DNA of 64,000 nt from an uncultured Erysipelotrichaceae bacterium (lineage in GTDB: Bacteria; Bacillota_I; Bacilli_A; RF39; UBA660). The translations under genes and the position numbers were made by a program. Position 1 is the first letter of the stretch. Each line of letters opens with the position of its first letter. The stretch covers positions 3,917 to 67,916 of the forward strand of contig CADANC010000008.1 of the NCBI GenBank assembly GCA_902789225.1. The letters run 5' to 3'. Below the pieces are notes generated by a model. The model did no database searches. It was not told where the DNA came from and saw only the letters and a program-made list of their open reading frames with translations. Shown piece after piece: positions 33,824 to 60,580 of this stretch.

Positions 33824-33848
33824 AGAAAAAAAGTCAATTTAATTGACT
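33824..33848 (-). terminator. Rho-independent terminator closing the Tad/T4SS locus
   Basis: Minus strand reads AGTCAATT-A-AATTGACT followed by TTTTTTT, immediately after the stop of the 422-aa ORF. Confidence 0.6.
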
Positions 33849-33849
33849 C

Positions 33850-35118
33850 TTATTTAATCTTATATGGTTTTTCGTATGTACCTTTTCCACTCTTGAAGTA
33901 TACATTTTCTTTTAAGTGAACTACAGGTCTAATATAACAACTATTTATAGCATGTTTTACTTCTATATTTCCATCTTCTGTTACTCCATATACATCATAT
34001 GTATTAGTTGAATCTCCTGTTGCTAGACAGAATTTATATTTATCTGTACCATTAATTCCTGATTTTAAATAGTTATAATTTTGACATGATTCACTTAAAG
34101 TATTAGTACAATTTACATCTAATGATGCATTCATATATTCACTAACTGTTAATAATCCTACGTATTGATTTTGTATTTTTTCAATACATTCTGTTTCATT
34201 ATTCTTTGAAGTATCTTCATGAGAACGTTTTCCTACACACATGTCAAATGGTGCTAATTTAGCCTTATTTGCTGCACTCATTACAGTTATTTCTCTAGAA
34301 TCTCTTTCTCTTTGATACTTTCCTTTAAATATTGTTTCTAATTTTTCTCTTACTCTACTATTTTGATATGAATTTATACCAATTTCATATCCTTTGTCAG
34401 TATTAAATCTATCATCCCAACTACTTTGTAAGTCTCTTATTCCTTCTGCAAATACTAAAGTAATTGTATTATCATTATTAATTCTAACTATTTGCCATAA
34501 ATAATCACCTAATTGTACGTAATTATTTACATTATCTCCTTTGAATACATATGCTCCATTTATTGCATATAAACCATATCCAGAAGTAACTATATTATCA
34601 TCATTAGCTACTACTTTATATAGTTCTGTTGTCACATAACTATCTCCACAATCTAGATATGGACTATATACATATTTACCAGCAGAATTTTCTACTGTTA
34701 CGTATGAAGTTCCACTATTACATGTAACATTTTCATCTGGTATTAATACTGAAAAATCTTTCATATATTCTTCATTTATTAAATTAGATGCAGGAATATC
34801 AATAATATCTCCTTCTTCAGGTAAGTATTCTGAATGGTCCTCCATATACTTTTCTCCTGCTTCTTTCATTATTTTTTCAACATCTGAAAATGATCTACTT
34901 CTTTTAGTAGTTAAAGATAAAACTAACATTATTAAGAAGAATAATACTAATAATACAGCAATTATTCCCATAAATTTTATTAATTGTTTTTTTAGTTCTG
35001 CATTTTGTTTCTTTTGTTGTTTTCTTCTTACCTCTTGTTCATCATCGTCATCATCTTCTATTATATCTTCTTCTTCAATTCTATCTACTTTTTTCCCTGT
35101 ATTAAAATTAATATTCAT
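33850..35118 (-). CDS. N-anchored Cys-containing surface protein, paralog of the 602-aa ORF
   Basis: 422 aa. An acidic/basic N-terminus and one TM segment are followed by modules shared with 57139-58947: ...YLDCG..., NNY(V/I).L...(W/F)(Q/R)I(V/I), and a C-terminal KSGKGTYEKPYKIK. Confidence 0.55.
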   Translation of the reverse strand: MNINFNTGKKVDRIEEEDIIEDDDDDEQEVRRKQQKKQNAELKKQLIKFMGIIAVLLVLFFLIMLVLSLTTKRSRSFSDVEKIMKEAGEKYMEDHSEYLPEEGDIIDIPASNLINEEYMKDFSVLIPDENVTCNSGTSYVTVENSAGKYVYSPYLDCGDSYVTTELYKVVANDDNIVTSGYGLYAINGAYVFKGDNVNNYVQLGDYLWQIVRINNDNTITLVFAEGIRDLQSSWDDRFNTDKGYEIGINSYQNSRVREKLETIFKGKYQRERDSREITVMSAANKAKLAPFDMCVGKRSHEDTSKNNETECIEKIQNQYVGLLTVSEYMNASLDVNCTNTLSESCQNYNYLKSGINGTDKYKFCLATGDSTNTYDVYGVTEDGNIEVKHAINSCYIRPVVHLKENVYFKSGKGTYEKPYKIK

Positions 35119-35126
35119 AATACCTC

Positions 35127-37433
35127 CTAATTATCAAAGAAATCATCAAAGAAATCATCGTCATCTTCTTCTTCATCTAATGTTAAATCTGGTTCTTTAA
35201 TCTCTTTTGCTATATTTGTATTTGTATTAGTTTTAATCTCATTTGTCTCAATCTTTGGAGCAGTTTGTTCGATTTGTACAGTTTCCTTTTTACTAGCTGT
35301 ACCACTTCTAGTTCTCGCTTTTGCTTCTCGTTCTTTTTCTTCTCTTTCTTCTCTTTCTAATTCAGCAATTTTTGCATCTATTTTTCTTACTAATTCATCT
35401 ACATCAAAATCATCATTGTCATCATCTTCAAATGAAGGCATTGGTTTTCTAATTGGTGGAGATGATACTCTATTTTCAGATGGTGTAGGAAATTGAATAT
35501 TTGGTCTGATAGGAGTCTCTTCTTCTTTCTTTGCAAATATTGGTCTTATTTCTTCACTAGGTCTTTCTGAAGTTGCGATAGGTGGTCCAAAATTACTTGG
35601 TAGATTACTTGGAAGTGGTCTTCTTGAACTCATTCCAGTTTGTCTTTCCATCATTGCTCTTGTTGAACCTGCTGTTCCATCTTTTCCTTCTTGTTTTTCT
35701 TTATTCATCATTTCAAGAAGTTTTTTCTTCTTAGTTTGTCTTACAAATTCTTTAATATCAAAAGTTTGTACTTTTCTCTTTTGTCTTGTTGGATATTCTG
35801 TTGGAGGATAATTATCTCCCCAGTCTAATTTAAAGTTTGGAGTAAAGTGTGTTTTAAATGGTTGTAATCTCGTACGTAATATAATTACATCGAATTGTTT
35901 CATTCTTTGTAAGTCAGATACTGTAACTAATGGAGTTGATGCTGTCTTATCATCTTTTTTAGATTTAACCTCTCCACACATTTTAGATATTTCTTCTAAA
36001 GCTTTAAGTTCTGTAGTTAACAAGTAAATTAAGTTACCACAGTTACCTCTTATAGTTTCTGCTTCTTCTTTACCATAAACTTGATCTAATTGAGCAAAGT
36101 TTTGAATTATCATTGTAAATCTAATATGTCTTGAACGAGCTGCTGTAATCATAGTTGTTACATCTTTTAATGGTGGCATGTTAGCAAACTCATCTAGTAA
36201 GAAGTTTGTTCTTATAGGTAAATGTCCACCATGTCTTTGAGCAACAGCAATTAAAGTTTCATAGATTTGTTTTAAAAGAATAGTTGCTAAAGCATGGTAT
36301 GTTTTCTTTTCATCTTGAATAACTATGAACACAGCTGTTTTCTTTTCTCCGATACTTTCTAAATTGATATCAGAGTATGATAACATCTCACTTAAGTTTT
36401 CACGAGATGCAAATAATTTTATTTTTTGTTTGAATACTGAAAGAATTGAATCCTTTGTTTCATCTGGTGCCATTATAGTAGCAGATGCATCTATAGCAGC
36501 TGCACTATTAGGATCTTTTTCAGCAAAGTATTCTTTTATGAATGTTGATCCACCAAACTTTTCCTCACCTACTGTAGTAGCAAGTGAAATTGAGTTAATA
36601 TTAATCTCTTCTGGCTTAGCATCTTCAAATAATCCTAGAGCAACTCCAGCAAAATAATCTGCTGCTGTTTTTTCCCAGAAAGGATCTGAATTCTTATTTG
36701 ATGAATCATACAATATATTTAAAGCTAAGTCATCTAATAACTCTATTGACTTATCTTGATTTCCTTTTTTATACAATTCATAAGGTAATGACATAGGGTT
36801 CCATGAATTACCTTTTTGAGGATCACGGAAGTTTAATACTAATACTTGGTATCCTCTTTTTCTAAGCATGGTTCCAGTTTCTTCATATATCTCACCTTTA
36901 GGGTCAGTTATAATCATACTTTCTCCATGTCTAGCTAGAATTTTTACTGTAGGAAAAATTACTGTTTGAGTTTTACCTGAACCAGTAGAACCTATAACTA
37001 ATGTGTGATATTCACCATTATCAACATATAATTTATCATCTTTAATAATTAAAGGAATTCCTGCAGCATTAGTTTTCTTATCATAGACATTTACTTCTGC
37101 TATTTTAGGATCACTTTTAATATCTTTTTCTTTTGCCCAACGAGAATAACCTTTAGATAGTTTTTCTGTAGTTAAACCTACTCCTTCTTCTCTTTCGAAA
37201 ATATATGATTTTACACTAAATAGTAATACTCCTAATGCTATAGCATAAATACCTAAAGTTATACCTATTTTCTCTGGCGCAAAAGCAGGGAACGGATTTA
37301 ATCCAGCTAATTCTGCATCACTTGCAAAAGCTGAAATATTAACAACTATTAAAGCAACTATATACAATAAGAATATAGCAAATACTCCAAATATTAATAA
37401 ATCGTCTGGATCTATACGCAATTTTAATTTCAT
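35127..37433 (-). CDS. Type IV coupling protein (VirD4/TraG/TcpA-like)
   Basis: 768 aa with two N-terminal TM segments, Walker A VIGSTGSGKTQT, TDPKGE, NSWNPM, Walker B FLLDEFANMP and RSRHIRFTMIIQNFAQL..YG...A..I.GNCGN. A ~200-aa disordered tail ends in EEEDDDDFFDDFFDN. Confidence 0.9.
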   Translation of the reverse strand: MKLKLRIDPDDLLIFGVFAIFLLYIVALIVVNISAFASDAELAGLNPFPAFAPEKIGITLGIYAIALGVLLFSVKSYIFEREEGVGLTTEKLSKGYSRWAKEKDIKSDPKIAEVNVYDKKTNAAGIPLIIKDDKLYVDNGEYHTLVIGSTGSGKTQTVIFPTVKILARHGESMIITDPKGEIYEETGTMLRKRGYQVLVLNFRDPQKGNSWNPMSLPYELYKKGNQDKSIELLDDLALNILYDSSNKNSDPFWEKTAADYFAGVALGLFEDAKPEEININSISLATTVGEEKFGGSTFIKEYFAEKDPNSAAAIDASATIMAPDETKDSILSVFKQKIKLFASRENLSEMLSYSDINLESIGEKKTAVFIVIQDEKKTYHALATILLKQIYETLIAVAQRHGGHLPIRTNFLLDEFANMPPLKDVTTMITAARSRHIRFTMIIQNFAQLDQVYGKEEAETIRGNCGNLIYLLTTELKALEEISKMCGEVKSKKDDKTASTPLVTVSDLQRMKQFDVIILRTRLQPFKTHFTPNFKLDWGDNYPPTEYPTRQKRKVQTFDIKEFVRQTKKKKLLEMMNKEKQEGKDGTAGSTRAMMERQTGMSSRRPLPSNLPSNFGPPIATSERPSEEIRPIFAKKEEETPIRPNIQFPTPSENRVSSPPIRKPMPSFEDDDNDDFDVDELVRKIDAKIAELEREEREEKEREAKARTRSGTASKKETVQIEQTAPKIETNEIKTNTNTNIAKEIKEPDLTLDEEEDDDDFFDDFFDN

Positions 37434-37483
37434 ATTTGTCTTCCCTTTCTATGTAATATTATATCTTAACTTTAATAAATAGT

Positions 37484-38287
37484 CTATTGATTAGAAACCA
37501 CAAGTTTAAATTCGTCAACCGAATTAACATGTTTAAATTTATATATATAATTTTTTTGTTGTCTAGCTGATAAACCTCCACAAGCAAAGATTATTTCTTG
37601 TTCTCCATCTAAGTCATAATCAAGAACTGCTCTCATGAAAGGTTTACATCCATCAGAATTTTCCATTTCTTGAATATCAGTAAATATACGATATATTTCT
37701 CCTTGTTTTTCCATGAAAACTATTGTGAAATTAAAGTTTTCTGGATTATCCAAAGGTAAGGAATTACTAATGAAATAAATATTTTCATCTTTTGAATCAT
37801 TATCTATGTCAATAGATACTACTTGATCGACTGTTAAATAAGATGCTTCTATTCCATAACTATCTAGTACTGCATTTACATAACTATAATCTACTATTTT
37901 TTTTGACTCAAAAGGTGTCAATTTAATTGATGTATCTGCTCTTAGAGCAATAAAATCTTCTGTTACTGTGACAGGCTTACGATGTTCTTCATCACCATCA
38001 AAAATATACCATTTATCATTATGCCACATGCTATAATTTCCTAATAGTTCATTGTTTTCATAAACATCATATTTTAACCAGTTTAATTTATCATATGTAG
38101 ATTCAAATTCTACATATGTCCAAAAACTACCATTATACGTAAATGTAGCATTATCTCCCATAATGATAGTTATTTGGTTATTAGTCTTATTAAATTTTTT
38201 TGTACCACCTAGTACTAGAAACATAATTAGAGCATAAACTGCTAGGACAACGAGCATTATAATTATTATTTTTTTATTTTTACTCAT
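37484..38287 (-). CDS. N-anchored extracytoplasmic protein of the T4SS module (candidate VirB8/TcpC-position protein)
   Basis: 267 aa with a single N-terminal TM segment. Its position between hydrolase and T4CP is the only basis. No motif is recognised. Confidence 0.35.
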   Translation of the reverse strand: MSKNKKIIIIMLVVLAVYALIMFLVLGGTKKFNKTNNQITIIMGDNATFTYNGSFWTYVEFESTYDKLNWLKYDVYENNELLGNYSMWHNDKWYIFDGDEEHRKPVTVTEDFIALRADTSIKLTPFESKKIVDYSYVNAVLDSYGIEASYLTVDQVVSIDIDNDSKDENIYFISNSLPLDNPENFNFTIVFMEKQGEIYRIFTDIQEMENSDGCKPFMRAVLDYDLDGEQEIIFACGGLSARQQKNYIYKFKHVNSVDEFKLVVSNQ

Positions 38288-38296
38288 AATGCCCTC

Positions 38297-40768
38297 CTAT
38301 ACTTTTTGATAATATGCATATGTTGAAGTGTTTTGCCAATTATATTGTTTCCACATATCAGTTGATGATGATGCTGGATCCATCATAGTAATTGTATCTC
38401 CTGATACTGAAACTACGGCTACCCAGTGTTGTCCGGTATTACCTTTTACTTCAGCTACTACATAATATCCTTTATCTACTAATTCTTTTAATTTACTTAA
38501 TTTTTGTTCTTTTGTATAACCTGAAACTGATTCTTGTCCTAAATATTTGAAACTAGGTACAACTGTTGTTACAGTATTCCAATATAGTGCTCCACCTGAT
38601 GTAAATCCATTATGTTTATTTAGAGCTTCAACAAATGTTCCAGGGTTAAAATCGTCTCCAACAATAGAGGTATCAACATTAGATCTTGCTATTTGCATAG
38701 CTATAGATGTTACTAAACATCCTATTTCTCCTAAAGTTTCTCCTGATGAACCCATTGGAGTAGATGACCATTTAGGATCTGATTGCATCCATTGCATGTA
38801 ATCTCCATTTAACATATTACATGTATTAGCGTCTGAACCACAATTATTCTTTTTAATATCTGAACTTCCACCATACATTGATAATAAGATTTGCTTGTAA
38901 TCATTTCCTGAATTTGCTAAAGAAATCATTCTATTTGTTTCAGATGATTTATAATCTGAATAATAGACATTTCCTGAAGAGTTTACTAAAACTTCTCCTT
39001 CTACTTCACTTGCCCATTTTCTTAGTTTTGAGTCTTCTGGCATTGGGTCTCTTACTTTATTTGGATGATCTAGTCCAGGATATACCATACCATTTTGACC
39101 ATCTATATTTGATGAGCATCCCATATCAGGATCACAATATACTTGATCTTGTGTACATGCTGCAACTTGTAAAACCCATCCATCTCCTTCTTGCTTAAGA
39201 GAATGCCATCCTCCCATATCTGTAGGACGAGCTAAAATATAACTTCTTGCAGCTACTAATTGAGCTTTAAATGCTTGTTCTGGTGCGTCATCACCTATTT
39301 CTTGATAAGCAACACCTAATATATATTTTTCAAATGGAACTAAATCTGCACCTTCTAGAGGTTTACCATCAGTTCCTCCATAACTTCCACCACATTGCAT
39401 TAATCTAACACTAATTTCATTAATACTCAAGTTTTTAGATACATTTCCTCTTCCGGGTATATAGAAACCTTTAATATCATATGAACATTTACCTGAACCT
39501 TCAACACACTCTTCATCTAATTTATTCTTACCAATGAAACTATAATATTTTCTCATATATTCATATACATCATCGGCCATTTTTTCATTTTCACCATCTG
39601 TATTGTCAGGAAAATAATCAGGAAATACTTTATAGGCTAAATTGTATTTTGAGTCTTCTTCACTTTCTACGAAAGCATTTGCAATTTTTCTAAGTCTATT
39701 TTTTGAATAATATTCATAAGTATATTTAGAATCTTTTTGGTAAATTATGTGGTATACAGCAACTATTTTTAATGTTTTATTTAGGTCTCCTGATGAGACA
39801 TCATTTCCGGCTACTTCAACTACTCGATCCATAAAATCTTCTCTTTCGTCATCTGTAACTACGTAATCAACATTACCGGTATCTCCTCCAGCAGCTTGGT
39901 TTGCAGCTAGGGCATCATCATATTCTCCAGAGACAATATTTCCTCCACCGACTACTATGATAGCTGCTAAAAAAGAGAAAACTATAGGAAATAAAAGTAT
40001 TACAACTATAATTGCATTTTTTCTTATAAAAGCTGTTACTTTTCCTCCACTCATTGTGCCATCATCTTGGCTTAGTGGAGTGTCTTTTTCTTTATCATCA
40101 CTAGGTTTACTACTATTTCCATCTTTACCATTATCTTTTCTAGAATTAGAAAAATCAGGTGCGGATTGGGCACCTGTATATGAAGCTGGCATTGATCCGT
40201 GGATTTTCATTTCACCATTATTACTTGCTATTTCACTTCCAGGATTTGGCTTTCCACCAGCGGCTCCAGCTTTACCCATGTTAGTTGCTCCAGCGCCACC
40301 TGCAGCTCCATTTGCACCACTTGCTCCTCCTGTTGCGCCTCCGGCAGCTCCACCGCCATTTTTGGCACTCATCATTCTTGCGCCTTGGCCTATTTTATCA
40401 CTTGCACCACTTTCACTAAGTTTGTTTGATGCATCTTGAATCTTTTTTCCTCCAGGAGCTACTTTATTTGCTTTATTCATTGCCTTTCCTAAAGCTTCAG
40501 TAGATTTACCTCCTGTTATTTTATCTGCTCCTTTTACAACAGCACCTGCAGCCATTGCATAAGGATTTTTAGAAGCGATTGCGACATCAGCGGCATTTCT
40601 AATATTATTAGCATTATTTTTGGCATTTCTTTCATCTTGTGACATTTGATTGTCATTACCATTACCACTATCTCTCATGCTTGCAGATTGGCTTGGATTG
40701 TAATAATTTGATCCACGTGTCCCATCTCCACCATTTCTACTTGCTTGATAAGCCACTGATATCACCAC
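38297..40768 (-). CDS. T4SS-associated bifunctional cell-wall hydrolase (SpoIID-like domain plus C-terminal papain-fold C39/CHAP-like cysteine peptidase)
   Basis: 823 aa. The N-terminal ~250 aa are Gly/Ala/Asn-rich low complexity and are followed by a TM segment. YILGVAYQEIGDDAPEQAFKAQLVAARSYILARP resembles the SpoIID/LytB core. The C-terminal ...LGEIGCLVTSIAMQI...GQHWVAVVSVSGDTITMMDP is a Cys/His peptidase pattern. The start is uncertain (GTG at 40768 or 40759). Confidence 0.7.
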   Translation of the reverse strand: MVISVAYQASRNGGDGTRGSNYYNPSQSASMRDSGNGNDNQMSQDERNAKNNANNIRNAADVAIASKNPYAMAAGAVVKGADKITGGKSTEALGKAMNKANKVAPGGKKIQDASNKLSESGASDKIGQGARMMSAKNGGGAAGGATGGASGANGAAGGAGATNMGKAGAAGGKPNPGSEIASNNGEMKIHGSMPASYTGAQSAPDFSNSRKDNGKDGNSSKPSDDKEKDTPLSQDDGTMSGGKVTAFIRKNAIIVVILLFPIVFSFLAAIIVVGGGNIVSGEYDDALAANQAAGGDTGNVDYVVTDDEREDFMDRVVEVAGNDVSSGDLNKTLKIVAVYHIIYQKDSKYTYEYYSKNRLRKIANAFVESEEDSKYNLAYKVFPDYFPDNTDGENEKMADDVYEYMRKYYSFIGKNKLDEECVEGSGKCSYDIKGFYIPGRGNVSKNLSINEISVRLMQCGGSYGGTDGKPLEGADLVPFEKYILGVAYQEIGDDAPEQAFKAQLVAARSYILARPTDMGGWHSLKQEGDGWVLQVAACTQDQVYCDPDMGCSSNIDGQNGMVYPGLDHPNKVRDPMPEDSKLRKWASEVEGEVLVNSSGNVYYSDYKSSETNRMISLANSGNDYKQILLSMYGGSSDIKKNNCGSDANTCNMLNGDYMQWMQSDPKWSSTPMGSSGETLGEIGCLVTSIAMQIARSNVDTSIVGDDFNPGTFVEALNKHNGFTSGGALYWNTVTTVVPSFKYLGQESVSGYTKEQKLSKLKELVDKGYYVVAEVKGNTGQHWVAVVSVSGDTITMMDPASSSTDMWKQYNWQNTSTYAYYQKV

Positions 40769-40790
40769 CTAACTTTTTATATTGTTATTA

Positions 40791-51645: not shown

Positions 51646-52449
51646 TTATTGTCCTGTACCTTCAACAACAGTGATCTCATTAATATAATTAACTAGTTCT
51701 TCAGATGAGATTGCAACCTCTCCTGGATTTTCTTTTAATGATTCATTTGTTGGTACTGGAATTAATTCAGCAGAGTAAGAACCTAAGTTTTCAGTTTTTG
51801 TTAGTAATATAAACATGTCACTAGGTACTGCAAATACTACCATTGCTGGAGTTCTTTGTTCATCTAGATTAGCAAATACTGCTTGTCCAGATGCATCTTT
51901 TACAGCTAGTACTTTAACATTTTCTAACAATTTTGATACTCTGATGAAGTTTGATTGTTGTTGACCTTCTTCTCTTCTCTCAACAATTTTTACATAAATA
52001 TCAATGTAGTTTCCTGGATATACTGAGTTACCATATGTACTTGAAGTATTAACTGCCATGTTATATAGAACATATCCATTTGGATAACTTAATATGATAT
52101 TTGCAGGTAATTGTTCTTTTTCTACTACTTGTCTTTCGTAGAATAAACTTCCGGCAGGTATTAATGTATCTGCATTTGAATATTTATCTATAACTGCAGA
52201 TGCACTTCTAACTACATCTCCTTGTAACATTGAAGGAGGTACTTGTCTAGTTCCTACCATACTCTCAGTTATTTGTGTACCTGGAGAAATTTGTTGTCTA
52301 GCATATGGTACAGTTACTGGATTAGTTGCTTGATTAACACGCCAGTTGTAAGCAAAGTATAGTACAAATATTGCTACTACAATACCTACAACGGTTACTG
52401 TGTTCTTATTTGACAAGAATTTTTTTAATCCGCTTGATATATTTCCCAT
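51646..52449 (-). CDS. cpaB: CpaB/RcpC-like Flp pilus assembly protein (SAF domain)
   Basis: 267 aa. An N-terminal TM segment is followed by the SAF-like VPYARQQISPGTQITESMV. It lies upstream of tadA. Confidence 0.65.
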   Translation of the reverse strand: MGNISSGLKKFLSNKNTVTVVGIVVAIFVLYFAYNWRVNQATNPVTVPYARQQISPGTQITESMVGTRQVPPSMLQGDVVRSASAVIDKYSNADTLIPAGSLFYERQVVEKEQLPANIILSYPNGYVLYNMAVNTSSTYGNSVYPGNYIDIYVKIVERREEGQQQSNFIRVSKLLENVKVLAVKDASGQAVFANLDEQRTPAMVVFAVPSDMFILLTKTENLGSYSAELIPVPTNESLKENPGEVAISSEELVNYINEITVVEGTGQ

Positions 52450-52468
52450 TTTTATCCCCTTTCAATGT

Positions 52469-52993
52469 TTAATCTACTCTATTAATTATTTCTTCATTTC
52501 TTACAACTTTATAAACTCCATCTTGTTTTACCAAACTAATTGGTTTTCCTATAGATGAATTTTTGTTTTGAAATTGTTTCTTTAAATAATCATTTGTAGT
52601 AGTGTTGCTTTGAACTAACTCACTAATTGATGTTGTTATTTCTGCTGCTTGACCATCAAAACTTAAAGTTGTAAGTGAATCGACTTTTATTGTTACTTTT
52701 GGTGGTACTTCATTCAATGCATAGAATGTAATTTTGTACTCTCTTGTATCATTTATATTATTAGCAAATCTTCTAATAAATGATTCTACAAATTTCTCTT
52801 TATCCATTCTTACAATACCGTTCATTGCTTGAAAGTTTGTATCAAGAGAATCTTGCATTGCTGCTTCTGTAGTTTCTTTTACTAGATAATAGTCTAGTTC
52901 TCCACCAGTAGCATAATTATTTAAAACATTTATTAGTAGGAGGGCCAAAACGGCCAAGAATATAATTCCTACTGATAACATCGCTTTGTTCAT
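52469..52993 (-). CDS. N-anchored small protein (pseudopilin-like/assembly factor, unknown)
   Basis: 174 aa with an N-terminal hydrophobic helix, MNKAMLSVGIIFLAVLALLLINVL. Confidence 0.35.
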   Translation of the reverse strand: MNKAMLSVGIIFLAVLALLLINVLNNYATGGELDYYLVKETTEAAMQDSLDTNFQAMNGIVRMDKEKFVESFIRRFANNINDTREYKITFYALNEVPPKVTIKVDSLTTLSFDGQAAEITTSISELVQSNTTTNDYLKKQFQNKNSSIGKPISLVKQDGVYKVVRNEEIINRVD

Positions 52994-53011
52994 ATATTAT
53001 TACCCTCCTAT

Positions 53012-56000
53012 CTACTCTAATGAGCCTTGTGCTCTATAGTTTTTAGCTCTCATTGATCCTCTATCTTGTGATCTTGGTGTTACTACTCTTGTTCCATCTT
53101 TTAAAGTTAGTGTTTCAAGTTGATCTAAGAATTTACTTTCGTAGTATTGAACTCCTGTTTCTCTTGAAACTTGAGGATCCTCTACTTTTGCATCGAATGC
53201 ATAATTTCTATGATCTCTATTATATTGTCTAATAAAGTTAATTACATCAGTATCCATTATGAATTCGTAGTCTATTTGTTCTTCACTAAATGTTTGTCCG
53301 CTTTCAGCGTTATTTATTATTTCTTGTAATAATCTTTCTGGGTTATTGTCATAACCACCTGCTGCAAAATATTTCATTGTAGCATCTTTTGACCAGTTGA
53401 ATGGTAAGTTTTCTAAATTAGATAATAGTGTACCATCTTCTAGAATTACTCTTGTTTGTGTAGAATTTACAATTGGATTCTTTTCATCAAAACTTCTTGC
53501 TGTATAGTTTGTTGTATCGTTATCACATGGTGGATTATCACATTGATCAGTTGGACATTCATCTCCAACACAACATGGTTGTGTATTACAGCTTGTTGTT
53601 TCATTACTTATTGCATAGAAGCAAGATACTGAGAATTTCCATCCGAAGTATCCGAATCCTCCAGCTGCTCCTTCACCAGTTGCTTCTCCATAAATATTAT
53701 ATCCTTCTAATCTAGATTCACTATTTACAGCGTTTTCACTGTATTTTTTCTTACTAAATTTACCTGAGAATGATGGTGAATAATCATCAGATACAAATGA
53801 TTTTAGATATTCATTTGCCCATGCTTTATTTGTTTCATATACATATGGTGATAAACAAACTTGTCCTTCTAAATATGTCCATCCAGTTTGACCAGCTGCT
53901 GGTTTATCATAAGATGCATATTGATGTTTATTTTCTTGCCATGTTCCTGGTGTTGTCCATTCAGTTTGATACCATCTCTTACCATCGACATTACCATAAC
54001 ATCCACCATAACTTAATATAGTTCCTGGTTTAATATCATTTTTAACTACTTTATTAATATGACTTGTTTTATTGTTTGTATTTGTATCAACTTCTATTAT
54101 CTTCTTGCTTGTTCCTTTTGTTCCATCTTCTTGATATTTAAATTTAATTGTATAAGTTGCTTCAGAATTTGCACATGTTGTTGCTGCTTTACATGCTCTA
54201 ACTGCAGCTTGATATCTCTTTTCATTATATTCACAATCTTTTGCTTGTAAATCATCAGCTGTACATATATCTACTGTATCAGTAGCTCCTGTATCAGCAT
54301 TATAGTAATTAACTGTTACTTTAGCTCCTGGTTGAATATTACAATCAAAATCTAAATATGTATTATTGCTTTCACATCCTGACCAGAAACAATTGTCTGT
54401 ACAGTTAGGATTTCTAATAATACCATTTGTATTAACCATATATCCACTAGTTGAATTAGCTTTTACTATATAATTTGCTCTTAAATACCATAAACCTGGT
54501 GTAGTTCCAAATGCAGATGCTGAGTATCCAGCTCCTCCAATTGTACTATGGCCTGGACTGTTAAATCTAACTCCTCCTCCTCTTACATAATGATACATAC
54601 CACTAAGATTTGCAGTATTTGTATTTGCTAATTGAACTGTTCTAACATTATTTAAAGTATTTAATCCCATTTGTTTAGCAGTTGCACTTGTGTTATTTTC
54701 ATATACTTCGCTATAACACTTTTCGCTACATGCGTCTGTATATTTACCTCCATCACAATTCATAACACATGCATCAAATTCTTCATTTGGTCCACCTTGA
54801 TGACTTTGAGGAGGTACATTAGTTGGAGTATCTGGTGTAGATCCATATCCATTTGAACTTCTTAATGTTCCACCTACTCTATATCCATTACATATTGGAA
54901 CAGGTAAACAAATATTTTGATCACACTTAGGTGTTTTAATATGAGAAGTATCTGCTTCACAGTTTACAATAGAACTTACTTTGATTCTATATTCGAAACA
55001 CATACCACCTCTTGAATATACAGGAGGACCATAATCAACTTTTACTACTTCATTACATGTTCTTAAGCAATATCCAGCATCTTCTGTAACTTGATTATTA
55101 CTGTAATTATATATATATTTTCCAATTTTATATTTGAATACTTGAACACCTTTAAAATATGTTGTGTTTGATTCATCATAATAATATTGTGTTAATTCTG
55201 CTGTATGTTGATCTTCATGATATTTCTTTGCTGTTTGTCTATTATATGCTTCTATTAATTTAATTTCATCTTTTGTTAAATTTTCATCACAATATAGTGA
55301 TATTTTTTCACTAATTTTATCTGGTTTTATTGCATCAGCAGATGCAACTTCTTTTTCTGCAAATTTATATGAGTAAGCACGATCATTGATTTTCTTAAGT
55401 TTTCCAACTTCTCCAAAGCAAGAATCTCCACTGCATCCAGCTTTTGCTTCAAATGCACTATTATATTCGTTATAAGAATATGAAATTGATGCTAAATCAG
55501 TTCCTTCACTTACTTCATAGTTAGTAGATGTTGAATCTCTTGATACTGCTGTAGGAACTCCTTCTTGTGCTGATTGTTTAGCAATTGTTGTATTGATTTG
55601 AGCTAAATTTTCTGGATATAATCCGCTAATTTTATAACCATCCATATGTTCATTAGGATCATCAGTTGATGTTTCACTAATTGGTGTAATTGTTCTTGAA
55701 CCAGTTGCAGTTCTTACATATGGTTCTGTTAGAGAATATCCATTACCAGATGTTCCTATTTCAATAGTACCGTATGATGTTTTCCATGTTGCATTCTTAC
55801 AATAACCTTTTCCTTCTTCTCTATCTTCTTCTTTTGGAACATAGAAGTCTATGTTCAACTCAATATTTGTTGCTTTTTTTGTATCTTTTGGAGTGAATTT
55901 TTCATTTGTTGTTATTCCATCTTTACAAGTGATAGTTCCATCATTAATATTTTCACCTGAAACTTTAATTTTTACTGTTGAACCATTAGCTATAGTTTTT

Positions 56001-56386
56001 ACAGCATTACTTTTAGGCTTACATTCTAATGTTACTTTTGTTACTTTTGATTCGTCTTCTTTGTCTTTAGTGTAAGTAACTGTTAGATTTAAATCTTCTA
56101 ATTCTTGTCCACATCTTTTTTTAGTAGCCTTTTCTTCATCTGCGCTAAGTTCTCCATTGTGCTCTATTTCAAGTTTGTCAAAAGCATCCAGACCAATTGT
56201 ATCTGATTTTGTACTAGTATCAGTTTTATTTACTGCTTTTTCTTCATTTTCAATAGTTTCTTCTTTTGCTGCATTGTTGCTTTTTTCATTAAATATAATT
56301 CCAACACTAACTAATACGAATAACATAACAATTAATAATGGAATTAATTTAAGATTGCCCTTCTTTTTATGCATTTTGTTCATCAC
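53012..56386 (-). CDS. Giant N-anchored Cys-rich extracellular protein (candidate adhesin/tip component)
   Basis: 1124 aa with a single N-terminal TM segment and about 35 Cys by manual count, including the cluster CNTQPCCVGDECPTDQCDNPPCDN. There is no C-terminal sorting signal. Confidence 0.55.
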   Translation of the reverse strand: MMNKMHKKKGNLKLIPLLIVMLFVLVSVGIIFNEKSNNAAKEETIENEEKAVNKTDTSTKSDTIGLDAFDKLEIEHNGELSADEEKATKKRCGQELEDLNLTVTYTKDKEDESKVTKVTLECKPKSNAVKTIANGSTVKIKVSGENINDGTITCKDGITTNEKFTPKDTKKATNIELNIDFYVPKEEDREEGKGYCKNATWKTSYGTIEIGTSGNGYSLTEPYVRTATGSRTITPISETSTDDPNEHMDGYKISGLYPENLAQINTTIAKQSAQEGVPTAVSRDSTSTNYEVSEGTDLASISYSYNEYNSAFEAKAGCSGDSCFGEVGKLKKINDRAYSYKFAEKEVASADAIKPDKISEKISLYCDENLTKDEIKLIEAYNRQTAKKYHEDQHTAELTQYYYDESNTTYFKGVQVFKYKIGKYIYNYSNNQVTEDAGYCLRTCNEVVKVDYGPPVYSRGGMCFEYRIKVSSIVNCEADTSHIKTPKCDQNICLPVPICNGYRVGGTLRSSNGYGSTPDTPTNVPPQSHQGGPNEEFDACVMNCDGGKYTDACSEKCYSEVYENNTSATAKQMGLNTLNNVRTVQLANTNTANLSGMYHYVRGGGVRFNSPGHSTIGGAGYSASAFGTTPGLWYLRANYIVKANSTSGYMVNTNGIIRNPNCTDNCFWSGCESNNTYLDFDCNIQPGAKVTVNYYNADTGATDTVDICTADDLQAKDCEYNEKRYQAAVRACKAATTCANSEATYTIKFKYQEDGTKGTSKKIIEVDTNTNNKTSHINKVVKNDIKPGTILSYGGCYGNVDGKRWYQTEWTTPGTWQENKHQYASYDKPAAGQTGWTYLEGQVCLSPYVYETNKAWANEYLKSFVSDDYSPSFSGKFSKKKYSENAVNSESRLEGYNIYGEATGEGAAGGFGYFGWKFSVSCFYAISNETTSCNTQPCCVGDECPTDQCDNPPCDNDTTNYTARSFDEKNPIVNSTQTRVILEDGTLLSNLENLPFNWSKDATMKYFAAGGYDNNPERLLQEIINNAESGQTFSEEQIDYEFIMDTDVINFIRQYNRDHRNYAFDAKVEDPQVSRETGVQYYESKFLDQLETLTLKDGTRVVTPRSQDRGSMRAKNYRAQGSLE

Positions 56387-57176
56387 CTTTCATTAATTTT
56401 TCAATTTTTTTATAATTATCTGTTTTTGCAACAGTATAATCCGTAACTTTTTCCCCATTTCTTAGCATTCTTCCTTCTATTACAAATGAGGAATGGTAAG
56501 AACCTCCATACATTCTAGTACATGTTACCAGAGTGATGAGATTATCATTACCATTTACATCTACATCTAGCTTATATATACTTTCTTCTTTAACTTTTTT
56601 TATATATTCATCTCTTTCTTTTTGTGAAAGATTGCTTGATATTGTTTCACTTTTATCTTGATAATCTAAATTAGTTGTTACAGCATAAATCTTATATAAG
56701 TAATTTTTATTATCAATAGTATATTGAATATATTTATTTTCTTTAACAAAATCATAATATATATACGCCATTAAATCATCAAATCTAGTGTACATTTTTT
56801 TGTTTACTCCAGGTGTTGCAGATAGATTTAATAGATTATGTCCTATGATAACAGTTCTATTTTCTAATTTTTTAGAATCACTTAAATTCCAAACATAATT
56901 TTTATTAATAAAACTTCCATCATATTCATCTGTATAATATATTACTTGGCTATCTATATTTGTTCCTTGAACTCTCAACCAGCCAGTTGTTTTATACATT
57001 TTTGTATCTTTTTGTTTTTCTTCTTGGATATTCTTTGTTCTATCTTCTATTTTATATATTTCTTCTTTTCCAGTGTTGATATATATTAATGATGCTATTA
57101 TGAAGATAATTATTAATATGGGTATGATTATTTCTTTTTTATCTACTGATGACATATGGATCATTGAATGAACCAC
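56367..57176 (-). CDS. Sortase, class-B-like
   Basis: 269 aa with an N-terminal TM segment, GWLRVQGTNIDSQVIYY (SrtB-like), catalytic His (VIIGHN), TLVTC and a downstream Arg (VIEGRML). The start is uncertain (57176, 57164 or 57155). Confidence 0.85.
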   Translation of the reverse strand: MVHSMIHMSSVDKKEIIIPILIIIFIIASLIYINTGKEEIYKIEDRTKNIQEEKQKDTKMYKTTGWLRVQGTNIDSQVIYYTDEYDGSFINKNYVWNLSDSKKLENRTVIIGHNLLNLSATPGVNKKMYTRFDDLMAYIYYDFVKENKYIQYTIDNKNYLYKIYAVTTNLDYQDKSETISSNLSQKERDEYIKKVKEESIYKLDVDVNGNDNLITLVTCTRMYGGSYHSSFVIEGRMLRNGEKVTDYTVAKTDNYKKIEKLMKGDEQNA

Positions 57177-58947
57177 TTCCAGTTACTATTGTAGCATCTT
57201 TTGCTAAGAATGCTTCTACTCTAACTGATTTTTCTGTAGCACTAGAATATGGATCTGTTACTATGACTCCAAGATTTGCCATATATGTATATTCAGTTTT
57301 GCTATTAGTATAATTCATAACCCAGTATTCTCTCATTCCTTCTCCTCTTGTTTCAAACACATTATATAAATCAAATATATCTGGAGCAAATAATTTTGTT
57401 TTGTATTCTTTAGTTTCTTTTTCTTTTCCATAAGCTATATTATCTTTATATATTGGAACATTTATTGTAGAAGATACTAAATATTTTGTATTAATAAATT
57501 CACTTGCTTTATTCTTAATAAAATATCCTATATTTCCACTTTCGTTTGGATTATAAGTATATCTATCTTGTGATTTTCCATCGTTTTTTGCTGTAATTTC
57601 ATATCCATTTGTGTCTCTTAAGATATCTGTTGAGATTATTCTAGTAGGTTCTTCTTTTTTAGTTTCTACTATTCTCCACTTGTAGTTATTTATTTGAATA
57701 TACTCTCCTGGGAATCTTTCATTTACTAAAGTTCCTGATTTTCCAGGTTTTACATCTTCAGTCAATATATATGGATTGTTTTCAGTTCCATTACCAGATT
57801 TTAATAATGCATTACCATCAATTGTAAATGTAGGTCTTACTCCATTTATATGTTTAACTGGTTCAGTAAATATTTTAGTATCATTAAATACATTAAACAT
57901 TCTTGCTACATAAGCATTATCTTCATCTAATTTATTACCTAGCCAATCCATTGATTCTGTCAACATCCATGTTTCTTCTTCTTTTGTTCTATTATAGTCT
58001 ACAACTGAGTTTATGTATATATTTCTTTCATCTGTATAACTAGAACATTCAGTTGTATCTAGATTTTCTACACTTAATACATCTTTACAATATTTTTCTT
58101 TAACAATTAATTTTCTTGTTTCTGGTGCTAGTGACTTATAATACTTTTCTAAATAACTATCTAAACCAGTGTAATTTACATGGCCTATTGTGTCTTCTGT
58201 AGTTACTCTAACATTTCCATTACTATCAAGTCCTATTATTCTAAATAAACTTCCAGATAGTCGGATATAGTTATTACTAGCATCTCTTCCTTTGTACATT
58301 CCTGTTTCTGTACTTTCTTTTATTGTAGATTTTATTACTTCAACTACCTTTATTGTTCTTTTTATCTCTGTTTGATTGCTTAAACTATCGAATGCTGTAT
58401 AAGTAATAGTATATGTTCCAACTCTTGATGTATCAACCTCTCCTTTTATTGAAACATCTTCTACCTTTAATTTTCCATCCACATTATCAACCACAGCTTT
58501 TACACCAGGATCTTTGAAATTTTCATTTTTGTTTATTCTCATTGTTTCTTCACCATTTAGCACTATTGTAGGGCCTTCATGGTCTATGTTTGATTTTAAT
58601 GCTCCACAATCTAAATAAACATAATATTTATAATTTGTTCCATCTTTTCTAACTTTTACCCAACTCTTTGTTGTAGAACAATACTTGCCATTTAGAGGTG
58701 ATTTAAAGTCATCTTGAATGTATTTTTCATTATATAAAGTTGACAATTTTACAACTGATATTCTTTTTCCTGTAGGAAGTCTTGTTTCATTTATTTGAAA
58801 ATATCTTTCTGCGGCTTTCTTCATTGTACTTTCATATGTCTTAAACTTTACATAAGGTCTAATTAGCAAGAAATAAGCCAATCCTACTATAATAGCAACA
58901 ATTATTATATTTCGAATTGTTTTTTTATAGTTTTTTTTCTCTCCCAT
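57139..58947 (-). CDS. N-anchored surface protein with Ig-like (DUF5011-type) domain, paralog of the 422-aa ORF
   Basis: 602 aa. HEGPTIVLNGEE...FKDPGVKAVVDNVDGKL...GEVDTSRVGTYTITYTAFDSLSNQTEIKRTIKV fits a bacterial Ig-like domain. It has two G-x-G-(S/T)-x-x-(N/D)-P-Y motifs and shares the YLDCG and NNYI.L...FRII modules. Confidence 0.55.
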   Translation of the reverse strand: MGEKKNYKKTIRNIIIVAIIVGLAYFLLIRPYVKFKTYESTMKKAAERYFQINETRLPTGKRISVVKLSTLYNEKYIQDDFKSPLNGKYCSTTKSWVKVRKDGTNYKYYVYLDCGALKSNIDHEGPTIVLNGEETMRINKNENFKDPGVKAVVDNVDGKLKVEDVSIKGEVDTSRVGTYTITYTAFDSLSNQTEIKRTIKVVEVIKSTIKESTETGMYKGRDASNNYIRLSGSLFRIIGLDSNGNVRVTTEDTIGHVNYTGLDSYLEKYYKSLAPETRKLIVKEKYCKDVLSVENLDTTECSSYTDERNIYINSVVDYNRTKEEETWMLTESMDWLGNKLDEDNAYVARMFNVFNDTKIFTEPVKHINGVRPTFTIDGNALLKSGNGTENNPYILTEDVKPGKSGTLVNERFPGEYIQINNYKWRIVETKKEEPTRIISTDILRDTNGYEITAKNDGKSQDRYTYNPNESGNIGYFIKNKASEFINTKYLVSSTINVPIYKDNIAYGKEKETKEYKTKLFAPDIFDLYNVFETRGEGMREYWVMNYTNSKTEYTYMANLGVIVTDPYSSATEKSVRVEAFLAKDATIVTGSGSFNDPYVISR

Positions 58948-58961
58948 AATATTCTTACCTC

Positions 58962-60515
58962 TTATTTAATCTTGTAAATATACCTTTTATTTCTAATAGT
59001 AAATTGGATGTACAATTCATTAGATTGTTCTACTTCTCTTGGAACAAGCGTGTAATAATACTTTCCACTGTACGTCTCTCTTGTCATAGATTTCATGCTT
59101 ATTGCCTGTTTCTTACCATTACTATCTATATAAATAATTTTACCATAATCAGTTGAAAAGTCAATTATATCTTTAGCCTCATAATCATCTGTTCCGTAAG
59201 ATAATATCATTATTTTTTTGTCCTCTGTAGAAGCTAAATCTCTATTAATATTTTCACATCCTGTGTTCTCATTACATTTCGTTAAAACATAGTAAGAATT
59301 TTCATAAAAATCAACACCATCTAGGATAATATTTTCATCTTTTCCTTTTATTGTTATAGTGAAATCATCACCTAATGACATATCCTTTTGTGTTTTTATT
59401 TTACTTAGATTATTTACTTTTAGTTTTATTTTTCTTAAATAAGTGTTAGAGCCGTTATATTCTTGATAAAATAGTACGAATCTACTTGGTCTTAAATTTT
59501 TTTTAACTTTAAATATCATTAGGAATGTTTTAGATTTGCCTCTTCCTAATTCAGAACCATCATATATTGGGCCCATATCTTTGAAATATTTTTCATTTGT
59601 TTTTGAAGATTCTGTATAATCAGACACTCCATTGAATAAGTGAAAATGATCAATATTAACAACCCTCATAGTAGCATTATTTGTTATTGTTACATCTACT
59701 ATTACATAGGCATTAGTATCTGAAATTATATCACCATTAAAAGATTTATCTGTATAATATACATTATTTACTTTTATAGTATAGCCGTTAGCTGTATAGG
59801 TATCTCCTTGTGAGTATGATTTATGAGATGCTATTGTAGTTATTGTATTCCTAACTAAAATTATTGAAAAAACTATTATAACTACATAGACAATTATTTT
59901 ATGTTCCATGTAGAAATAATTTAAGTTTCTTAGTATCTTTCTTCCAAAACGTTCAATAGAATGTTTGTCGAAATCAATGTTTATTTCAAATTCGCCCTGA
60001 TCTTCTTGACTTAATTCTAAATATTCTTTATCTAGTTGGAAATTAAATTTTTTTAAGTCTACTCCTAATATCCTCACTATAAATAGAATGAGTGAAGGAA
60101 ACTCTAAAACATTTATAAATATTGCTATATCTCTATACAGAGTTATTTGGCTTCTTTCATAAGCTCCTGAAAAGCTATTGAAGTATATACTAATCAAGGC
60201 ATTTATAAGAAACATTACAAAATATGTAATAAATGGTACTAAATATAATTTCCATGGTTTATTTTTTCTTTTTAATAATAAGATAAAAATAAAACACGTT
60301 ATTGCTACAAGAAGAATGATTATTTGCAAGTAAAAAGGAATATAATGAGATATTGGGTCATTTGTTTTATCATATACACCAAGATCCATGTATTCATTTA
60401 AGAAGCTCATTATTCTTGAATAACGTAAATATATGAATATAGATACAATTAGTAAAGCTATATGTATACGTTTAAAATACTTAATAAAAAAAGTATAAGG
60501 CTTTCTTATTATCAT
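58962..60515 (-). CDS. Polytopic membrane protein with extracellular DUF4352-like beta domain; first gene of the locus
   Basis: 517 aa with about 5 TM helices, followed by ...YVIVDVTITNNATMRVVNIDHFHLF..., which resembles DUF4352 Ig-like domains. Confidence 0.5.
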   Translation of the reverse strand: MIIRKPYTFFIKYFKRIHIALLIVSIFIYLRYSRIMSFLNEYMDLGVYDKTNDPISHYIPFYLQIIILLVAITCFIFILLLKRKNKPWKLYLVPFITYFVMFLINALISIYFNSFSGAYERSQITLYRDIAIFINVLEFPSLILFIVRILGVDLKKFNFQLDKEYLELSQEDQGEFEINIDFDKHSIERFGRKILRNLNYFYMEHKIIVYVVIIVFSIILVRNTITTIASHKSYSQGDTYTANGYTIKVNNVYYTDKSFNGDIISDTNAYVIVDVTITNNATMRVVNIDHFHLFNGVSDYTESSKTNEKYFKDMGPIYDGSELGRGKSKTFLMIFKVKKNLRPSRFVLFYQEYNGSNTYLRKIKLKVNNLSKIKTQKDMSLGDDFTITIKGKDENIILDGVDFYENSYYVLTKCNENTGCENINRDLASTEDKKIMILSYGTDDYEAKDIIDFSTDYGKIIYIDSNGKKQAISMKSMTRETYSGKYYYTLVPREVEQSNELYIQFTIRNKRYIYKIK

Positions 60516-60550
60516 AAATATTCTCCTATTCTCTATAAGTATACAATAAA

Positions 60551-60580
60551 ATTATATTAAATTAAAGCATTTATTTACAA
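60551..60580 (-). promoter_or_regulatory. Sigma-A promoter (TTGTAA-N18-TATAAT) heading the Tad/T4SS locus
   Basis: Minus strand: TTGTAA at 60580-60575, an 18-nt spacer, TATAAT at 60556-60551. The RBS TAGGAGAA precedes the ATG at 60515. Confidence 0.55.

Follow-up and report, generated by a model that had tools for sequence, protein, structure and literature searches.

The window analysed here, 64,000 nucleotides (nt) of contig CADANC010000008.1 from an uncultured Erysipelotrichaceae bacterium, contains a block of 22 co-directional minus-strand open reading frames (ORFs; orf1 to orf22, from 60515 down to 33850) in which a surface/adhesion module, a Tad-like filament module and a Gram-positive type IV secretion system (T4SS) module lie in one cluster. 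We favour, with a probability of roughly 0.6, the reading that this block is a host-owned (domesticated), relaxase-less version of the conjugation machinery of pLS20/pXO-type plasmids, fixed in the chromosomes of a large, uncultured clade of gut Bacilli with small, AT-rich genomes. The architecture is already known from conjugation plasmids; what is new is its chromosomal, relaxase-less and vertically conserved state. All 22 ORFs of the original prediction were present in the ORF table of the window at 33850-60515, and its central claim, that Tad-like and Gram-positive T4SS modules are genuinely combined here, held. Its view of this pairing as an unusual fusion of normally separate machines did not, because the same pair occurs on pLS20, pXO1, pBMB67 and a Mycoplasmatota plasmid. 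The surface/adhesion module comprises a DUF4352 protein with five transmembrane (TM) segments, an Ig-like protein, a sortase and a Cys-rich protein of 1124 amino acids (aa). The Tad-like module comprises DUF5411, CpaB/RcpC, a TadA/CpaF-VirB11-family ATPase, two paralogous polytopic proteins, orf10, orf11 and a TadZ/CpaE-like protein, and the T4SS module two VirB2-like proteins, VirB6, VirB3, a split VirB4, a SpoIID/peptidase hydrolase, an N-anchored protein and VirD4.

By tblastn, plasmid genes showed homology to orf6, orf7, orf9, orf17, orf18 and orf21 of the window. On pLS20 of Bacillus subtilis, tadA/'VirB11' (gene 37; 32% identical to orf7) and two membrane proteins are followed by small TM proteins and then by VirD4, VirB6, DUF5592, VirB4 and MobL. 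The pLS20 operon (genes 28-74) thus resembles the block in its TadA/'VirB11' ATPase followed by two membrane proteins of ~250-270 aa and small TM proteins, and also in its CD1115-family VirD4, large VirB6, VirB3-like DUF5592, VirB4, wall hydrolase and upstream surface adhesin. It differs in being plasmid-borne, in its MobL relaxase, origin of transfer (oriT) and Rco/Rap/Phr control, in having no annotated CpaB or TadZ, and in placing VirD4 ahead of VirB6. On pBMB67 of B. thuringiensis the order is MobP3, VirD4, TrbL, PrgI and VirB4, then SAF, AAA ATPase, T2SSE ATPase, two membrane proteins, small proteins and DUF4320; its tra-gene layout resembles that of pAW63 and pXO2. On pXO1 of B. anthracis (L091 among the related loci that we fetched, which carry L-numbers throughout) cpaB, an AAA ATPase, CpaF/VirB11 and a membrane protein occupy 12782-16852, DUF4320 lies upstream, the ORF at the TadC-like position looks truncated by a stop codon, and PrgI and VirB4 follow ~12 kb further on (28484-31851). 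Both of these B. cereus-group plasmids, with which pAW63, pXO2 and pBT9727 can be grouped from published descriptions, share with the block, in like order, the SAF/CpaB protein, AAA (TadZ-like) ATPase, CpaF/VirB11 ATPase and two membrane proteins, as well as TrbL, PrgI and VirB4, with VirD4 annotated on pBMB67 only. They differ from it in carrying a MobP-type relaxase, in the separation of the two modules by several kb and other genes, in a VirB4 only 28% identical to that of the window, and in a TadZ-like gene that precedes the ATPase, whereas in the block it follows the pilins. A relaxase is annotated or typed on three of the four plasmids (pLS20 MobL, pBMB67 MobP3 and, by MOB-suite typing, a MobP-type relaxase on pXO1).

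Published descriptions of these plasmids name the genes otherwise. The gene table of pAW63 lists 'VirB11' followed by conserved proteins of 278 and 250 aa (PMC1196294), and for pLS20 gene 37 has been called a VirB11 homologue, with genes 38-41 unassigned and no pilus homologues encoded (Val-Calvo 2021; PMC8557374). In the part of the literature that we covered, no paper was found that describes the pLS20/pXO module as a Tad pilus. The pairing of Tad-like and T4SS modules thus belongs to an already known family of Gram-positive conjugation systems.

The chromosomal state of the block was followed by scanning one genome per GTDB species with a 5-sequence VirB4 alignment (a 13-sequence version was too divergent) and inspecting ~20 kb around each homologue. 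Relatives of the block's VirB4 were found in at least 528 of these species representatives. The best 80 of these are 77-90% identical and include a closed 1.52-Mb chromosome of a metagenome-assembled genome; nearly all are from animal guts and labelled as uncultured Bacilli, "Tenericutes", "Mycoplasma sp. CAG:877", "Clostridium sp. CAG:710" or Ca. Onthousia, and the few named otherwise (Muribaculaceae, Acidaminococcus) are probably mis-binned or mis-titled. The carriers are probably RF39/RFN20-type reduced-genome Bacilli, a group for which no paper linking it to a T4SS was found in the literature covered. In metagenomes this VirB4 has thousands of close relatives, labelled "Bacilli bacterium" where a label is given. 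The nearest VirB4 outgroups found were in Erysipelotrichales, and look-ups of relatives at 44% and 41% identity gave 2-kb contigs only.

Gene order and selection are consistent with vertical conservation. In the fetched loci orf6-orf22 are collinear, with rmuC downstream in 43 of them. One other genus showed the greA boundary: in Ca. Faecimonas intestinavium the block begins directly after greA with orthologues of orf1-orf5, a five-gene set also present in two further lineages. The two boundaries of the greA-to-rmuC interval, which the original prediction had proposed comparing among relatives, thus each recur in related genomes. The co-occurrence of both halves, likewise proposed as a check, was also seen in the related chromosomal loci: in the chromosomal clade the Tad-like and T4SS halves are contiguous and co-directional, with junction gaps of at most 46 nt, and they are kept together in most loci with enough upstream sequence. 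The ratio of nonsynonymous to synonymous substitution rates (dN/dS) lay between 0.04 and 0.39 for 15 of the 17 genes of orf6-orf22 (orf15 and orf19 gave no value), with 0.04 for VirB4 and 0.12 for VirD4, the latter among the best-conserved genes at a median identity of 66%. All tested block genes are under purifying selection. Nor is the block compositionally foreign, its GC content being 0.30 against 0.278 in the rest of the window. Being chromosomal and lineage-wide, with VirB4 and a type IV coupling protein (T4CP) and with no nearby relaxase, it falls among the MOBless chromosomal T4SSs, a descriptive category rather than a curated family.

Within the Tad-like half, the CpaB/RcpC component was identified as predicted, orf6 passing the RcpC cutoff and matching SAF (Table 1); it also matched TIGR03177 (2.5e-14; 53 bits, under the cutoff of 71) and aligned with the SAF protein of pBMB67 at 99.5% in hhalign. 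The TadA/CpaF-type secretion ATPase, orf7, carries the motifs GETGSGKT, TIEDTLEL and STIHA that had been quoted for it. Among PDB sequences it matched FlaI (7e-21), CpaF (4.5e-20) and VirB11 (3e-14), FlaI and CpaF scoring ~20 bits above VirB11, and its top NCBIfam models were VirB11 and TIGR03819 ("TadA family conjugal transfer-associated ATPase"). Because all NCBIfam equivalogs stayed under their cutoffs, we place orf7 at superfamily level only. Its C-terminal ~100 aa (50320-50620) form a Pro/Glu-rich low-complexity tail that varies widely in length among orthologues (406 to 527 aa). DUF5411, the family of orf5, has been reported in CpaF/PilC operons of Clostridia (Miller et al. 2022; PMC9523054). 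In one related locus (L092, 6960-8577) two tandem genes of 265 and 268 aa stand at the CpaB position ahead of the ATPase; we call them CpaB-like from position and size, with no Pfam match on record.

The remaining Tad-like components were recognized by more distant means. A degenerate ParA-like TadZ candidate had been proposed, and the predicted fold and architecture of orf12 agree. In 25 aligned orthologues, a variable linker joins an N-terminal alpha/beta domain to a C-domain with the degenerate P-loop HAG[AS]TT. In an AlphaFold2 (AF2) model with a predicted local distance difference test score (pLDDT) of 74, Foldseek matched the C-domain to MinD, ParA, BcsQ and FleN (probability 0.99-1.0) and the N-domain to the receiver-like domain of the pilus-assembly protein CpaE2 (4myr; probability 0.99). 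On this predicted fold and architecture orf12 appears to be TadZ/CpaE-like; sequence profiles from Pfam and the PDB gave no match. The two TadB/TadC-like proteins foreseen by the original prediction are indeed polytopic paralogues (orf8 against orf9, hhalign 71-93%). The pBMB67 membrane protein that follows its ATPase aligned with orf8 at 89%, and the second one with orf9 at 94% (tblastn 4.8e-5). Enriched profiles of orf8 and orf9 matched the pair on the Mycoplasmatota plasmid at 87-94% (89-93% for orf8), and one protein of that pair carries a significant T2SSF domain; for orf8 the chain to T2SSF runs via the pBMB67/pXO1 proteins and then this pair. A search of plasmids for T2SSF homologues of the Mycoplasmatota protein returned two matches only, and the plasmid homologues of the pBMB67 TadB-like protein are all annotated as hypothetical. 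We therefore regard orf8 and orf9 as likely TadB/TadC platform proteins, which the profile chains suggest but do not show. The predicted small pilin-like ORF, orf10, has a near-invariant N-terminus, MK[AE]A[TS]GELN[LM]TV, ahead of its hydrophobic helix in 60 aligned orthologues, and the pseudopilin-like orf11 had no family match in Pfam or NCBIfam and no significant hhalign match to DUF4320 of pBMB67. Across the block, Pfam at E values up to 10 gave no usable match for orf8-orf13, orf16, orf17, orf20 or orf22, NCBIfam matches within orf5-orf14 were confined to CpaB and the ATPase, and alignment profiles of orf8, orf9, orf12 and orf20 found no match among PDB sequences.

The T4SS half carries the VirB4 ATPase, VirD4-type coupling protein and cell-wall hydrolase (VirB1 analogue) that characterize Gram-positive conjugative T4SSs. 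As quoted in the original prediction, orf18 contains GTSGSGKS and VDEAH, and orf21 contains GSTGSGKT, TDPKGE and LLDEFANMP. The coupling protein orf21 (Pfam T4SS-DNA_transf 4.8e-55, 188 bits; TraG-D_C; TrwB_AAD_bind) passes the curated CD1115-family VirD4 model NF045973 with 315 bits against a cutoff of 250. VirB4 (orf18) scored 353 bits against NF045975, the model for mycoplasma integrative and conjugative elements (ICEs; cutoff 590), and 174 bits against the CD1110 family; PF26593 (TraC-like) matched orthologues of orf17. On the fused mycoplasma-ICE VirB4 model, orf16, orf17 and orf18 align collinearly (positions 2-116, 92-276 and 294-893), and therefore three separate ORFs here encode VirB3, the N-domain of VirB4 and its ATPase. 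For the hydrolase orf19, whose predicted SpoIID-plus-Cys-peptidase organization was supported, the peptidase domain was seen as Peptidase_C39_2 on the L089 orthologue; two hydrophobic segments lie at residues 242-280 of orf19. The remaining membrane subunits fit their predicted roles in topology more than in family. The VirB2/TrbC-like hairpins orf13 and orf14 have the expected two TM segments, with T4SS_pilin matches below threshold, orf13 being conserved in 70-74 related loci. The VirB6-like orf15 fits in topology and position, and reached 25.7 bits against Pfam TrbL_4 (cutoff 27) and 1.2e-4 against NCBIfam MMCAP2_0566 of Mycoplasma ICEs. The VirB3-like orf16 fits in topology and in its gene position, which is that of PrgI or DUF5592 on pBMB67, pXO1 and pLS20, and its alignment to the VirB4 model is weak (E = 0.0099). 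The last conserved gene, orf22, was found in 60 loci at 30-47% identity, with a sub-threshold DUF6273 match.

Table 1 Features of the block (positions in the window; signals at its two ends in the last two rows)
Feature	Position	Strand	Description
orf1	58962..60515	-	517 aa; five N-terminal TM segments and extracellular DUF4352-like domain; first gene after greA
orf2	57139..58947	-	602 aa; N-anchored surface protein; Pfam Bact_surface_Ig-like, 3.1e-19
orf3	56367..57176	-	269 aa; class-B-like sortase; Pfam Sortase 28.1 bits (cutoff 26.6)
orf4	53012..56386	-	1124 aa; N-anchored large surface protein, 35 Cys; no known domain
orf5	52469..52993	-	174 aa; N-anchored; Pfam DUF5411, 1.7e-42
orf6	51646..52449	-	CpaB/RcpC-like SAF protein; Pfam RcpC 35.5 bits (cutoff 28.8) and SAF
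orf7	50320..51615	-	TadA/CpaF-FlaI-VirB11 superfamily ATPase; Pfam T2SSE 5.5e-28, 98 bits
orf8	49404..50306	-	300 aa; polytopic, four predicted hydrophobic segments; TadB-like platform candidate
orf9	48604..49395	-	263 aa; polytopic, paralogue of orf8; TadC-like platform candidate
orf10	48347..48514	-	55 aa; pilin-like, N-terminus and hydrophobic helix
orf11	47802..48317	-	171 aa; pseudopilin-like: charged leader (MRDAxGG), hydrophobic helix, Cys-rich ectodomain
orf12	46756..47766	-	336 aa; cytoplasmic, TadZ/CpaE-like; receiver-like N-domain, MinD/ParA-fold C-domain
orf13	46386..46709	-	107 aa; two-TM hairpin, VirB2/T4SS_pilin-like; Pfam T4SS_pilin E = 0.13, sub-threshold
orf14	45783..46247	-	154 aa; signal peptide and two-TM hairpin, VirB2/T4SS_pilin-like; T4SS_pilin E = 0.0087, under cutoff
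orf15	43496..45760	-	754 aa; polytopic VirB6/TrbL-like channel protein, six hydrophobic segments
orf16	43131..43475	-	114 aa; two-TM VirB3/PrgI-like protein
orf17	42578..43180	-	200 aa; VirB4 N-terminal domain as separate ORF; NF045975 positions 92-276, 1.7e-14
orf18	40791..42581	-	596 aa; VirB4 ATPase; Pfam AAA_10 48 bits, P-loop_TraG 48 bits, DUF87
orf19	38297..40768	-	823 aa; bifunctional wall hydrolase, VirB1 analogue; Pfam SpoIID 1.9e-9, C-terminal Cys-peptidase-like domain
orf20	37484..38287	-	267 aa; N-anchored, at position of VirB8-like subunits; possibly lipoprotein in some relatives
orf21	35127..37433	-	768 aa; VirD4 coupling protein with acidic C-terminal tail
orf22	33850..35118	-	422 aa; single TM between acidic cytoplasmic N-terminus and Cys-containing ectodomain; last conserved block gene
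Promoter-like hexamers	60551..60580	-	TTGTAA, 18-nt spacer, TATAAT; 10/12 consensus match; between greA hairpin and orf1
Plausible terminator	33824..33848	-	AT-rich hairpin (AGTCAAT/ATTGACT) and T-run, read by eye; 3' of orf22

The surface/adhesion module bears out the predicted sortase embedded with large Cys-rich N-anchored proteins. The catalytic triad of orf3 is intact, with His (GHN), Cys (LVTCT) and Arg conserved in an alignment with the L089 orthologue, and orf3 also matched TIGR03064 under its cutoff (4.6e-12); no LPXTG or NPXTG sorting signal was found in any protein of the block. On its domain content orf2 is a candidate adhesin, and a Bact_surface_Ig-like domain stands at the same position in L089, L092 and L093. 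The position of orf4 is taken by genes of 931-1052 aa in L089, L090, L092 and L093. An orthologue of orf1 adjoins greA in L089 and L090 (37% identity), and L092 and L093 have genes matching it in size and position. As a fused prepilin peptidase orf1 was considered and rejected, having no A24 match and no GxGD-type motif in a two-sequence alignment. The predicted extracellular proteins orf4, orf11 and orf22, with 35, 6 and 8 Cys residues, are unusually Cys-rich for a gut anaerobe.

Several observations weigh against the domestication reading. The locus is known from its sequence, and no candidate effector or substrate was identified for the block. No Pfam T2SSF or NCBIfam match was obtained for orf8 or orf9, so that the T2SS-F label of the original prediction holds through remote profile chains and not through a direct family match; the AF2 model of orf8, from a shallow alignment of 74 sequences, has a pLDDT of 61 and gave no meaningful Foldseek match. 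The pilin candidate orf10 lacks the Flp motif G/XXXXEY and matches no Flp/TadE family, which leaves its predicted pilin-like character to its N-terminus and helix, and no prepilin peptidase (TadV/CpaA, Peptidase_A24) was found among the ORFs of the window. Because of these last two gaps we call the filament module Tad-like; it is not a canonical Tad system. The two halves are also separable: L078 and L079 carry the T4SS half with no adjacent Tad-like half, L082 (5593-6847) has two ComGC/type IVa pilus-type prepilins (KGFTLIELLAV) directly upstream of its T4SS pilin gene and no Tad-like half, and L081 (3134-4087) has, of the Tad-like half, the TadZ-like gene only. Finally, relaxases were looked for in ~20 kb per homologue, in genomes of ~1.5 Mb, and a relaxase and oriT elsewhere are therefore possible.

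This last point bears on the alternative that survives best, in which the block is a working DNA conjugation apparatus, with a relaxase and oriT encoded at another chromosomal site or of an unrecognized type, and chromosomal DNA is moved as in Hfr or mycoplasma chromosomal transfer. That VirD4 passes the cutoff of a curated conjugative family, that the best VirB4 model match is a Mycoplasma ICE family and that the closest characterized relatives are all conjugation systems speak for it. However, Pfam scans of the ORFs found no relaxase, recombinase, replication or partition domain in the 64 kb, in agreement with the original prediction, and no homologue of pLS20 MobL, pBMB67 MobP3 or pXO1 DUF3854 was found in 1.72 Mb comprising the window and the related loci, whereas the plasmids encode their relaxase beside the T4SS genes. 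The linked relaxase and oriT expected of a conjugative system were thus not found, and we consider this alternative unlikely.

Slightly less likely is the view that the two halves merely adjoin, so that an adhesion pilus of Tad-like type and its surface proteins would lie beside a separate T4SS with no functional coupling. The four loci with a missing or reduced Tad-like half fit it, as do stand-alone DUF5411/CpaF/PilC operons of Clostridia, for which no T4SS component is mentioned (PMC9523054), but at least four plasmids, from different genera, carry the pairing again, and the chromosomal halves, tightly joined, are mostly retained together. In L078 and L079 an ORF of ~870 aa, taken from its N-terminal sequence as a putative P-type ATPase, lies directly upstream of the T4SS half.

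A competence-like apparatus for DNA uptake or release, comparable to ComB of Helicobacter pylori, the gonococcal genetic island (GGI) of Neisseria or the archaeal Ced/Ups systems, seems very improbable. GGI-type DNA release needs a relaxase, and ComB works without a coupling protein; the strongly conserved VirD4 of the block argues for export and against an uptake-only machine of the ComB type, and no competence genes were found in the window. The locus does lack a relaxase and has weak NCBIfam matches to CedB and CedD, but these lie far under cutoff and reflect the shared ATPase fold only. In its favour, transformation of Micrococcus luteus has been reported to depend on Tad pili (PMC4322843).

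An ordinary or decaying ICE, with integrase and relaxase just outside the window or recently lost, is already close to refuted: although the gene content is typical of Firmicutes conjugative elements, the window holds no relaxase, integrase or other recombinase domain, no flanking direct or att-like repeats occur at the block boundaries (a check that the original prediction had set), the flanks are core genes that recur on the greA side in another genus and on the rmuC side in 43 loci, at least 528 species carry the VirB4 relative, base composition is native, the ORFs are intact with dN/dS well below 1, and the 12-tRNA cluster lies 20 kb off rather than adjoining the block.

Returning to the reading of a domesticated, relaxase-less conjugation machine, we can sketch how it might work. 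The orf19 hydrolase would open the cell wall, and the ATPase, platform proteins, CpaB and TadZ would build a short filament out of orf10/orf11. Acting with orf2 and orf4, the sortase-associated surface proteins, this filament could make or stabilize contact with another cell, a role like that of the IncI thin pilus and presumably like that of the homologous pLS20/pXO module. VirD4 would then pick cytoplasmic substrates and pass them to a VirB4/VirB3/VirB6 channel for export. Because no relaxase is linked, the cargo is more likely protein than DNA, although DNA processed by an unlinked or unrecognized enzyme could take its place, and the beneficiary would be the host cell, not a mobile element. 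DNA exchange or contact-dependent delivery, as offered by the original prediction, is a plausible function.

A bolder and distinctly tentative extension is that the block is a lineage-defining, host-owned, Tad-filament-assisted T4SS for docking onto cells and exchanging macromolecules (effectors, nutrients or DNA), a counterpart of the T4SS of Saccharimonadia (Patescibacteria) that has been reported essential for epibiotic growth. As a corollary, the pLS20/pXO 'VirB11' would be the motor of a so-far unseen Gram-positive Tad-like conjugative pilus. If this is true, these Bacilli would be a second independent reduced-genome lineage, after Patescibacteria, to retain a monoderm T4SS lacking a relaxase among its core chromosomal traits. 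This would suggest that co-opted conjugation machinery generally goes with genome reduction or with dependence on other cells, and it would open a way into the biology of Bacilli that are abundant but uncultured in gut and rumen. For the plasmids, the 'VirB11' of pLS20-, pXO1- and pXO2-type elements sits in a near-complete Tad-like set (CpaB, TadZ-like, two platform-like and small pilin-like proteins), and the old question of whether Gram-positive conjugation builds a pilus becomes directly testable in a tractable model, pLS20 genes 37-41. The species carrying the VirB4 gene, at least 528 in number, are natural variants for covariation analysis and structure prediction of the whole machine.

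Purine-rich, Shine-Dalgarno-like stretches lie 5' of the block ORFs, and intergenic distances run from -50 to +138 nt. The signals predicted at the two ends of the block stood in part. The hexamers of the near-consensus promoter are present, but 10/12 matches around 60580-60551 are as frequent as in shuffled sequence; the hairpin and T-run of the terminator can be read, but a terminator scan made no call at 33824-33848 (too few G-C pairs). No Rfam element was found within the block. The flanks and the rest of the window are housekeeping by Pfam (bacA, eno, an AMP-binding enzyme, rpoD, dxs, lon, tig, aspS, gatCAB, trpS, rmuC, greA, an HD protein and two U32 peptidases), in keeping with the core-gene flanks originally described, and the window also holds one restriction endonuclease and 12 tRNAs.

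Three small minus-strand ORFs (32980-33793) separate the block from rmuC. Two of them form a tandem pair of paralogues (33214-33501 and 33524-33793; 71% identity over 165 nt) without a family match; all three are absent from related loci, which have rhodanese and VTT-domain genes instead. A strong promoter-like site (11/12 plus extended TG) at 33837-33809 precedes them. Directly 5' of gatC, a T-box leader (30498-30748, minus strand; 119 bits against a gathering score of 93) presumably controls a gatC-gatA-gatB-aspS operon. The endonuclease ORF, of the MvaI/BcnI family (12174-12899, plus strand; 1.5e-42), adjoins an SPFH gene and the tRNA cluster, with no methyltransferase gene visible beside it. 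The 12 tRNA genes (12979-14027, minus strand) account for the locally raised GC content at 12-15 kb; lying ~20 kb away, they are not an integration boundary for the block. A 549-aa ORF at 14865-16514 (minus strand) is extremely Glu/Lys-rich and coiled-coil-like, with no family match.

Beyond the plasmids described above, four known systems invite comparison. The T4SS of Mycoplasma ICEs, with its Mbov_0397-family VirB4, supplies the best curated-model match for the block's VirB4, under the equivalog cutoff as noted above; orf15 matches its VirB6-like family, and its fused VirB4 spans orf16-orf18. These ICEs are mobile via a DDE recombinase, and we know of no Tad-like module in them. The canonical Tad/Flp pilus of Aggregatibacter and Caulobacter shares with the block CpaB/RcpC, an ATPase of the TadA/CpaF family, the TadZ/CpaE architecture, a paralogous pair of platform-like proteins, a very small pilin and a protein resembling a pseudopilin. 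The block differs from it in the absence of the Flp motif, of a prepilin peptidase in the window and of a direct T2SSF match, and in the degenerate P-loop of its TadZ-like protein; secretin and TadD are absent as well, which is to be expected in a monoderm. IncI plasmids such as R64 are an older precedent for a type IV pilus combined with a T4SS, and the IncI type IV thin pilus stabilizes mating pairs. Like the block, IncI plasmids (R64, TP114) encode the pilus with a conjugative T4SS of the MPF_I type; unlike it, they belong to diderms, their pilus is of type IVb and not Tad-like, they carry a relaxase, and their components are unrelated in sequence. For the IncI2 plasmid TP114, pilus adhesins have been tied to conjugation specificity (PMC9045228).

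The closest analogue in concept is the chromosomal T4SS of Patescibacteria, which is of the MPF_FATA type, mostly relaxase-less and proposed to have been co-opted for a host-dependent lifestyle (Quinonero-Coronel et al. 2025; PMC12102498). It belongs to a different phylum, often lies near dnaA, and is described with no mention of a Tad module (PMC12102498). Like the block, it is a monoderm-type system with VirB4, a T4CP and VirB2-like (T4SS_pilin) proteins, chromosomal and widespread in a reduced-genome lineage, and mostly without a relaxase.

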